Source of the DNA: Escherichia coli
GTDB taxonomy: Bacteria; Pseudomonadota; Gammaproteobacteria; Enterobacterales; Enterobacteriaceae
Assembly: GCF_009931435.1 (NCBI RefSeq)
Contig: NZ_CP043414.1
Strand: one strand, 5' to 3'
Length of the DNA: 64,000 nt
A program made the translations under genes and the position numbers. Positions 58,665 to 59,209 of this stretch are shown here, one piece after another. Each line of letters opens with the position of its first letter. Within the stretch, counting starts at the first letter, position 1. The notes beneath the pieces were generated by a model that was not told the DNA's origin, searched no databases, and saw only the letters and a list, made by a program, of their open reading frames with translations.

Positions 58665-59209
58665 AACATTCCTTATTGATCATCTTTTTTGCAAAATTTT
58701 TAGTTAATATGATAATTAGAGATATGAAATGATTTCCTTCAATGCAGCTATAAATACGATGCGACATATCTTCCTGATATAATTATCTTTAACTTCCATT
58801 TTATTTCTATGTGGTAATGTTTGAGTATAAAAAGGCAGTGATAGTATCGTAAAATAATGCGCTAGCAACTATCAAAAAACGCTCATTTTAAAAGGTTATG
58901 ATATGCTTTGAAGGTGTATGAGGTGAAATTTTAGTGATCTTTTTTAAGTGTAGCAATAAAATTGGTTAAGCTGTATTGAAATTATTTAAAGAAGTGTTGC
59001 ATTAGTATCTGAAATTTTTCCTTTAAAAGGGAGGATGAGACAAAAATGCGCAGCTTCGGCGCTAAAAATTCTTTAGTTTGATTTTGTTAACTTTAAAATA
59101 GCATCTGAGTCATATAGCTATACCTAAAATAACCGTCATAAATGCCACTTAGCAAAACAGATGGCGAAGGAGCCACGAAGAACAAATAAGGGGGCATATC
59201 CCCCTTTAG

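Follow-up and report, generated by a model that had tools for sequence, protein, structure and literature searches.

Introduction

The closest described counterpart of the DNA studied here is the region between arsC and yhiS in Escherichia coli K-12, which constitutes promoter island 3648929_470, one of 78 that have been published (Panyukov & Ozoline 2013, Table 1, PMC3661553). Promoter islands bind RNA polymerase yet yield little full-length RNA, and island 3648929_470 is assigned to H-NS class 'A', bound in all ChIP data sets, and is linked to foreign genes (PMC3661553). In addition, yhiS is cited among the high-affinity sites of StpA (preprint, bioRxiv 10.64898/2026.02.10.705075). Mutations in this spacer have been recorded in K-12 under laboratory conditions. 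Laboratory evolution produced an intergenic arsC/yhiS mutation in both gallium-selected and control lines, and a phage-selection study reported one IS5-mediated deletion of 1,421 bp between arsC and yhiS (PMC6928379, PMC7260982).

Here we analyze the arsC-yhiS interval in a 64,000-nucleotide stretch of DNA (hereafter the window), which is a segment of the E. coli chromosome with the K-12 gene order reversed (Table 1). The interval is a composite spacer of three parts that differ in origin and function rather than a single element. We consider it likely that these parts are a control region for yhiS, probably silenced by H-NS and StpA, a deletion scar and the terminator of arsC. Read in this way, a long and seemingly empty spacer would be fully explained by a silenced promoter region, a scar and a terminator, which spares a hunt for small RNAs.

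The interval belongs to a larger AT-rich unit

The original prediction described a 545-bp, AT-rich, non-coding interval between yhiS and arsC that lacks any open reading frame of 60 codons or more. This description is accurate: the interval extends exactly from the start codon of yhiS to the stop codon of arsC (58665-59209), and synteny as well as homology bear out both gene names. GC content in the interval is 0.312, compared with 0.499 for the whole window, and the longest stop-free stretch is 50 codons. Because composition-matched shuffles give stretches of 57 ± 14 codons, the lack of long open reading frames is at the level expected by chance for AT-rich non-coding DNA. The interval contains eight runs of at least five A or T.

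Windows of 545 bp that are equally AT-rich make up 1.5% of all such windows, and every one of them falls within a single block at ~57.06-59.24 kb. High AT content is not limited to the interval, as the yhiS coding sequence (GC 0.316) and the slp-yhiS spacer (GC 0.294) have similarly low values; the AT-rich unit is the entire yhiS cassette rather than the interval alone. The last 59 bp of the interval, beside arsC, have a GC content of 0.49 and hence are not AT-rich. When the interval was searched for direct, inverted and tandem repeats, only short pairs at chance level were retrieved, and thus no IS, MITE or REP element was identified. The full-length interval is present at high identity in one of 5426 complete E. 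coli genomes, that of strain N96 (98.7% identity).

Table 1. Features of the arsC-yhiS interval and the neighboring genes, with positions in the window
Feature	Position	Strand	Basis or remark
dctR	55935-56465	minus	
slp	56621-57220	minus	
Diverged yhiS cassette (terminator, coding sequence, regulatory region, permease remnant)	57307-59150	minus	holds 486 bp of the interval
yhiS-like ORF, 410 aa	57432-58664	minus	
Predicted yhiS 5' regulatory region, 28% GC	58665 to about 59040-59067	minus	homologue of the K-12 arsC/yhiS promoter island
Shine-Dalgarno AAGGA	58670-58674	minus	5 nt ahead of the yhiS ATG (58664); read from sequence
Non-coding block with the highest conservation, -101 to -250 relative to the yhiS ATG	58765-58914	minus	alignment to seven other alleles
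Candidate sigma-70 promoter, TTGATA-18 nt-TACGAT	58846-58875	minus	consensus scan
Eroded 3' flank of the deleted permease gene	59041-59092	minus	alignment to intact TCM3e1, C7 and LH85a
ArsP_1-family permease 3' remnant, last ~19 codons	59093-59149	minus	stop codon 59093-59095
Chimeric 34-aa ORF	59093-59197	minus	by-product of the deletion
Deletion junction	59150/59151	n/a	~1.32 kb missing (L002 3681-5000)
ArsR/SmtB regulator remnant, last 12 codons and stop, SKTDGEGATKNK	59151-59189	plus	
GC-rich hairpin AAGGGGGCATATCCCCCTT	59188-59206	both	terminator scan
arsC, 141 aa	59210-59635	minus	stop codon 59210-59212
arsB	59648-60958	minus	
arsR	60992-61345	minus	

The yhiS upstream region resembles a K-12 promoter island

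Because yhiS is encoded on the minus strand, the interval is its upstream region. The first 325-403 bp of the interval are 74-79% identical to the region upstream of yhiS in 5414 of the 5426 complete E. coli genomes, and the part from 58665 to about 59040-59067 is ~78% identical to loci that contain an intact permease/regulator pair (described below). In K-12, the yhiS upstream region is found at the same genomic position and matches the window with 76% identity over ~325 bp. The ~375 bp next to yhiS (58665 to ~59040), about two thirds of the interval, would therefore by homology be the transcriptional control region of this gene.

Nine sequences representing several allele types were aligned over positions 58605-59095. 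Identity to the window was 72-88% at -101 to -250 from the yhiS ATG, 64-78% at -1 to -100 and no more than 66% beyond -300. Because the block at -101 to -250 is conserved above the synonymous sites of yhiS (identity ~59%, pS ~0.41), it appears to be under some constraint; this block, which includes an invariant 20-mer (TAATTATATCAGGAAGATAT, 58766-58785), is likely the core promoter and operator region of yhiS, and the core promoter would then lie 100-250 bp upstream of the ATG. Since other strains frequently carry yhiS as a pseudogene, selection on the control region may be weak.

A consensus scan identified eight sigma-70-like sites in the interval, compared with 2.8 ± 1.8 in shuffled sequences. 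All eight fall within the yhiS upstream part (58665 to ~59040), and six are on the yhiS strand. The best candidate for the yhiS promoter appears to be TTGATA-18-TACGAT (58875-58846), with a predicted start near 58839 and a 5' UTR of ~175 nt. Both hexamers are kept in eight of the nine aligned sequences, with strain 131 differing by one base in each (TCGATA and TGCGAT). The sequence AATAAGGAAT, comprising the Shine-Dalgarno and the start context, is invariant across all aligned alleles. Given the near-universal homology, the conserved block and the six sites on the yhiS strand, the original suggestion that the interval holds the yhiS promoter is probably right. We additionally noted an imperfect inverted repeat, TAATTAnnnCAGGAA ... 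TTCCTGnnnTAATTA, in the leader/promoter region of the common yhiS alleles (58766-58785 and 58712-58731; alignment columns 321-340 and 375-397). The repeat, whose second arm has degenerated in the window's allele, could serve as an operator or form a leader hairpin.

We take the K-12 island to extend from approximately -385 to +85 relative to the start of yhiS in K-12, assuming an offset of ~1977 bp between U00096.2 and U00096.3, and thus to be the stretch homologous to the one analyzed here. The interval shares with this island its position upstream of and into the yhiS start, the ~325 bp of syntenic homology, an equally high AT content, an excess of promoter-like sites and the association with a low-GC orphan gene; yhiS has a GC content of 31.6% in surroundings of 50% GC and is found in E. 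coli and Shigella only. While promoter islands are defined as regions of at least 300 bp with an exceptional density of start points predicted by PlatProm, the count for the interval comes from a simple sigma-70 scan. The interval also differs from its K-12 counterpart in being another, rare allele with a different distal part, the two lineages carrying different deletion scars. Binding of H-NS and RNA polymerase and low transcript output were measured in the K-12 island only.

The original prediction also raised the possibility of an H-NS nucleation site. Sequence in the interval is 69-78% AT and has a TpA frequency of 0.10-0.15, two to three times that of the window (0.049), both well above background as expected of an H-NS-silenced region. 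The high-affinity nucleation motif of H-NS, the 10-mer TCGATAAATT (Lang et al. 2007), is absent from 58665-59209 when up to two mismatches are allowed, and the nearest match (58349-58358, one mismatch) is inside the yhiS coding sequence. The 10-11-bp periodicity of AA/TT depends on the bounds chosen, being exceeded by 1% of shuffles for 58665-59150 and by 47% for 58665-59040. Because the motif is absent and A-tract phasing is inconsistent, an H-NS-coated region is better supported than a nucleation site. Thus, the K-12 island, the StpA citation and the AT and TpA content point by analogy to an H-NS region, whereas the absent motif speaks against a discrete nucleation site.

Most likely, the yhiS upstream part is coated and silenced by H-NS and StpA in the same way as its K-12 counterpart, such that RNA polymerase would bind but little full-length yhiS mRNA would be made. 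We infer H-NS binding and promoter use in the window allele by extrapolation from K-12, with which it is ~76% identical. The locus has several features in common with acquired DNA subject to xenogeneic silencing by H-NS and StpA: it is ~70% AT in a 50% GC genome, rich in TpA and home to an orphan gene cited as a StpA site, it has sharp compositional boundaries, and it adjoins the H-NS-regulated acid fitness island. It differs from such DNA in that the interval lacks the high-affinity H-NS motif and the cassette has neither hallmarks of mobile elements nor a plasmid or phage source.

A deletion scar separates the probable yhiS control region from arsC

The arsC-yhiS spacer of many strains carries an additional gene pair, which comprises a 333-aa permease encoded on the minus strand (PF03773 ArsP_1, E 1.3e-52) and an ArsR/SmtB regulator of 98 or 106 aa in convergent orientation. 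This pair is intact at the arsC-yhiS position in 2220 of the 5426 complete genomes. We mapped the interval onto intact loci with blastn and MAFFT, using L002 as the reference for the missing segment, and found truncated pieces homologous to both genes in the same order and orientation as in these relatives (Table 1). The permease remnant is identical to L002 3610-3680 at 51 of 58 aligned bases (blastn); a 13-bp deletion frameshifts it, and the C-terminal TQMLF and stop are retained. On the other side of the junction, the regulator remnant matches the C-terminal end of the 106-aa L002 protein without a difference, and its DNA is 98-100% identical. Microhomology at the junction is at most 1 nt.

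Because truncated gene ends cannot come from an insertion, and because the pair is intact at the same position in so many genomes, the distal third of the interval is a deletion scar. The sequence at ~59041-59189 would be non-functional debris, consisting of the decayed 3' flank and last ~19 codons of the permease gene fused to the regulator's terminal 12 codons, and the join at 59150/59151 would have been made by an illegitimate deletion of ~1.3 kb. This part of the interval had been overlooked in the original prediction: the distal ~170 bp are scar and terminator, not regulatory DNA.

All retrieved carriers of the window's yhiS allele, namely N96 and five contigs (L014-L018) from NCBI and Logan assemblies, share the 545/546-bp gap and the junction. 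Because every one of them does so although sub-variants differ by ~1-1.4%, the scar is old within the allele class. The pair is also missing from K-12, O157:H7, strain 4238 and an ST131-like strain, where another junction is found, and strain HS-02 has a third form of the spacer. The K-12-type and HS-02-type spacers are likewise scars between convergent genes that have lost the ArsP permease/ArsR-SmtB pair, and the window scar has the truncated 3' ends, in their original order and orientation, that mark such scars. The types can be told apart by what remains. In the K-12-type scar, no permease sequence is detectable and ~70 bp of the regulator gene are retained, whereas the window-type scar retains the permease 3' end, has its junction at L002 3680/5001 and is unique to the window's allele class. 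Because the junctions differ between strains, with at least three different ones (window/N96, K-12/O157 and HS-02 types), the permease/regulator pair has been lost repeatedly. The arsC/yhiS mutations observed in K-12 laboratory populations fit with an unstable spacer.

We also considered whether the junction had a single origin in homology-facilitated illegitimate recombination, a possibility raised by the observation that divergence ends exactly at 59150/59151. Because the 59-bp right flank is of the L002 type and not that of the nearest relative, such a single event is not separable from an old deletion in a diverged lineage.

While the significance of the interval in itself is small, the arsC-yhiS spacer has repeatedly lost an accessory ArsP/ArsR-like pair by deletion. 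This pair is missing from ~59% of complete E. coli genomes, and the recurrent scars are useful for annotation and strain typing. A plasmid-borne copy of the pair was found at ~85% identity (H93), and plasmids account for 364 places of the pair.

Hairpins next to arsC, the lost permease gene and yhiS

The GC-rich hairpin at 59188-59206 starts 4 nt past the arsC stop codon, directly 3' of the last gene of arsRBC, and has a 7-bp stem with five GC pairs. Predicted folding energies are -12.3 kcal/mol for the minus strand and, with a z-score of -3.2, -18 kcal/mol for the plus strand. The minus-strand tail, ATTTGTTCTT, passes the scan threshold of at least five T in eight positions, but the U-tract is interrupted. 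Judging from its structure and position, this hairpin is the probable intrinsic terminator of arsRBC on the minus strand, where it would end the transcript arriving from the right; in intact loci, it may also serve the convergent ArsR/SmtB gene on the plus strand.

The former terminator region of the permease (59041-59092) has a 4-bp GCGC stem and a T-run in the window, compared with an 11-bp hairpin in intact loci. Folding energies are -5.9 kcal/mol (z 0.07) for the window and -15.7 kcal/mol (z -3.3) for L002. A further hairpin, GGGGCG...CGCCCC, lies just 3' of the yhiS stop codon (57331-57362). Its GC stem is kept amid diverged surroundings in all aligned alleles but C7, in which one arm reads CGCCCA. 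This is probably the yhiS terminator, ~25 bp inside the left boundary of the cassette.

yhiS lies in a diverged cassette

Compared with its nearest relative, E200086, the window is ~100% identical up to position 57306 and ~78% identical over 57307-59150; from 59151 onward it is again close to sequence typical of E. coli. A single species thus harbors deeply diverged alleles of yhiS and its control region. Several YhiS allele classes exist, with amino acid identities to the window's protein of 60-72% in local alignments (BLASTP) and 61-65% in global alignments. Between the window's yhiS and the common alleles, dS is ~0.6, dN ~0.19 and dN/dS ~0.33.

Every YhiS homologue that carries a source name comes from E. 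coli or Shigella, and the protein falls into no Pfam, NCBIfam, PADLOC or PHROG family. When 1.84 billion cluster representatives were searched with a profile, one full-length cluster, fragments and weak matches were retrieved. In the weak matches, YhiS residues ~205-280 align to several stretches of each of a number of long proteins; considering also a sub-threshold match to the Pfam Pentapeptide family, we read these as suggesting a pentapeptide-repeat-like sequence. The AlphaFold model of YhiS (pLDDT 31.7) was too poor for a fold search.

The search for a source of the cassette returned no phage match, and a scan of genome contigs for an invariant 18-mer returned 22 chance matches in unrelated taxa, none in Escherichia, and no donor species. 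No plasmid source was found either; the only "plasmid" matches were three records of 4.8-4.9 Mb, the size of an E. coli chromosome, at 77% identity. Elsewhere in the window, a chu/shu haem-uptake island (~46900-55900) lies between yhiD and dctR and includes the shuA 5' UTR thermometer (52786-52817); the island is absent from K-12 and N96. Because N96 shares the cassette but lacks this island, the cassette moves between backgrounds.

Alternative explanations for the interval

The original prediction also allowed for an unannotated small RNA, and the interval could in principle encode one, either free-standing or derived from the 3' UTR of arsC or the 5' UTR of yhiS. The spacer is long, has promoter-like sites on both strands and contains one strong hairpin (59188-59206), and its plus strand overall folds slightly better than shuffles (z -1.55). 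However, the minus strand folds no better than expected (MFE z-score 0.07), and Rfam 15 gave no match in the interval, whether at E values up to 10 (57000-60000) or at the gathering score (whole window). Because the same scan found known RNAs elsewhere in the window (GadY, ES205, two AgrB-family RNAs, five rdlD and the shuA thermometer), it works on this DNA. Nor is there conserved secondary structure across relatives: RNAalifold on nine alleles gave a covariation term of +0.1, with 3 of 69 pairs weakly compensated. The only good terminator is already explained by arsC and the lost ArsR/SmtB gene. It has no plus-strand promoter-like site within 470 bp upstream and no same-strand promoter-like site within 300 nt, and no promoter and terminator are found 50-300 nt apart on one strand of the interval. 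With no RNA or small-protein gene annotated in the homologous gap of the curated MG1655 genome either, a small RNA is very unlikely. A hidden small protein gene seems even less plausible. Open reading frames of 37 and 50 aa exist near the yhiS start, and a chimeric one of 34 aa begins 12 nt past the arsC stop and runs to the former stop codon of the permease, but the lengths of open reading frames in the interval are below random expectation. None of the eight that have at least 12 aa within 58605-59095 is intact across the other allele classes, with starts lost or frames broken, and the 34-aa frame, which is outside the multi-allele alignment, has its ATG in the loop of the terminator hairpin and lacks a Shine-Dalgarno.

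A different possibility is that the whole interval is functionless, decaying DNA upstream of a dying orphan gene, with which it would share an AT-rich and slowly eroding state. Interruptions or frameshifts affect yhiS in K-12, C7, EC581, 4238 and strain 131, its dN/dS is 0.3-0.55 between allele classes, YhiS has no assigned family or fold, and one third of the interval is demonstrably a scar. These observations have to be set against the 410-aa open reading frame, which is intact in the window's allele class across sub-variants that differ by ~1-1.4%, against a dN/dS that is nonetheless below 1, and against the block at -100 to -250, the Shine-Dalgarno and the start context, all of which are conserved above the synonymous level. 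We therefore regard complete loss of function as quite unlikely and favor a yhiS control region, probably silenced, joined to a scar and a terminator. A more speculative proposal, and on balance an unlikely one, is that the cassette represents an ancient allelic alternative of an orphan gene confined to E. coli, and that it is kept at low frequency, spread between unrelated backgrounds by recombination and subject to long-term balancing or diversifying selection. If this were true, the conserved -100 to -250 block would be a shared switch, such as an anti-silencer operator, of an H-NS-silenced gene, and if selection maintains the diverged yhiS alleles, the orphan deserves functional study.

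Other RNA features of the window

Five tandem matches to the rdlD antitoxin RNA (Ldr/Rdl type I toxin-antitoxin) were found at 57-2056 with a spacing of ~484 bp; the corresponding site in K-12 presumably carries only one ldrD/rdlD copy. Between arsR and gor lie two matches to AgrB-family antisense RNAs (61495-61577 and 61728-61812, minus strand). They form a direct repeat with 87% identity and represent the K-12 agrA/agrB pair next to dinQ.
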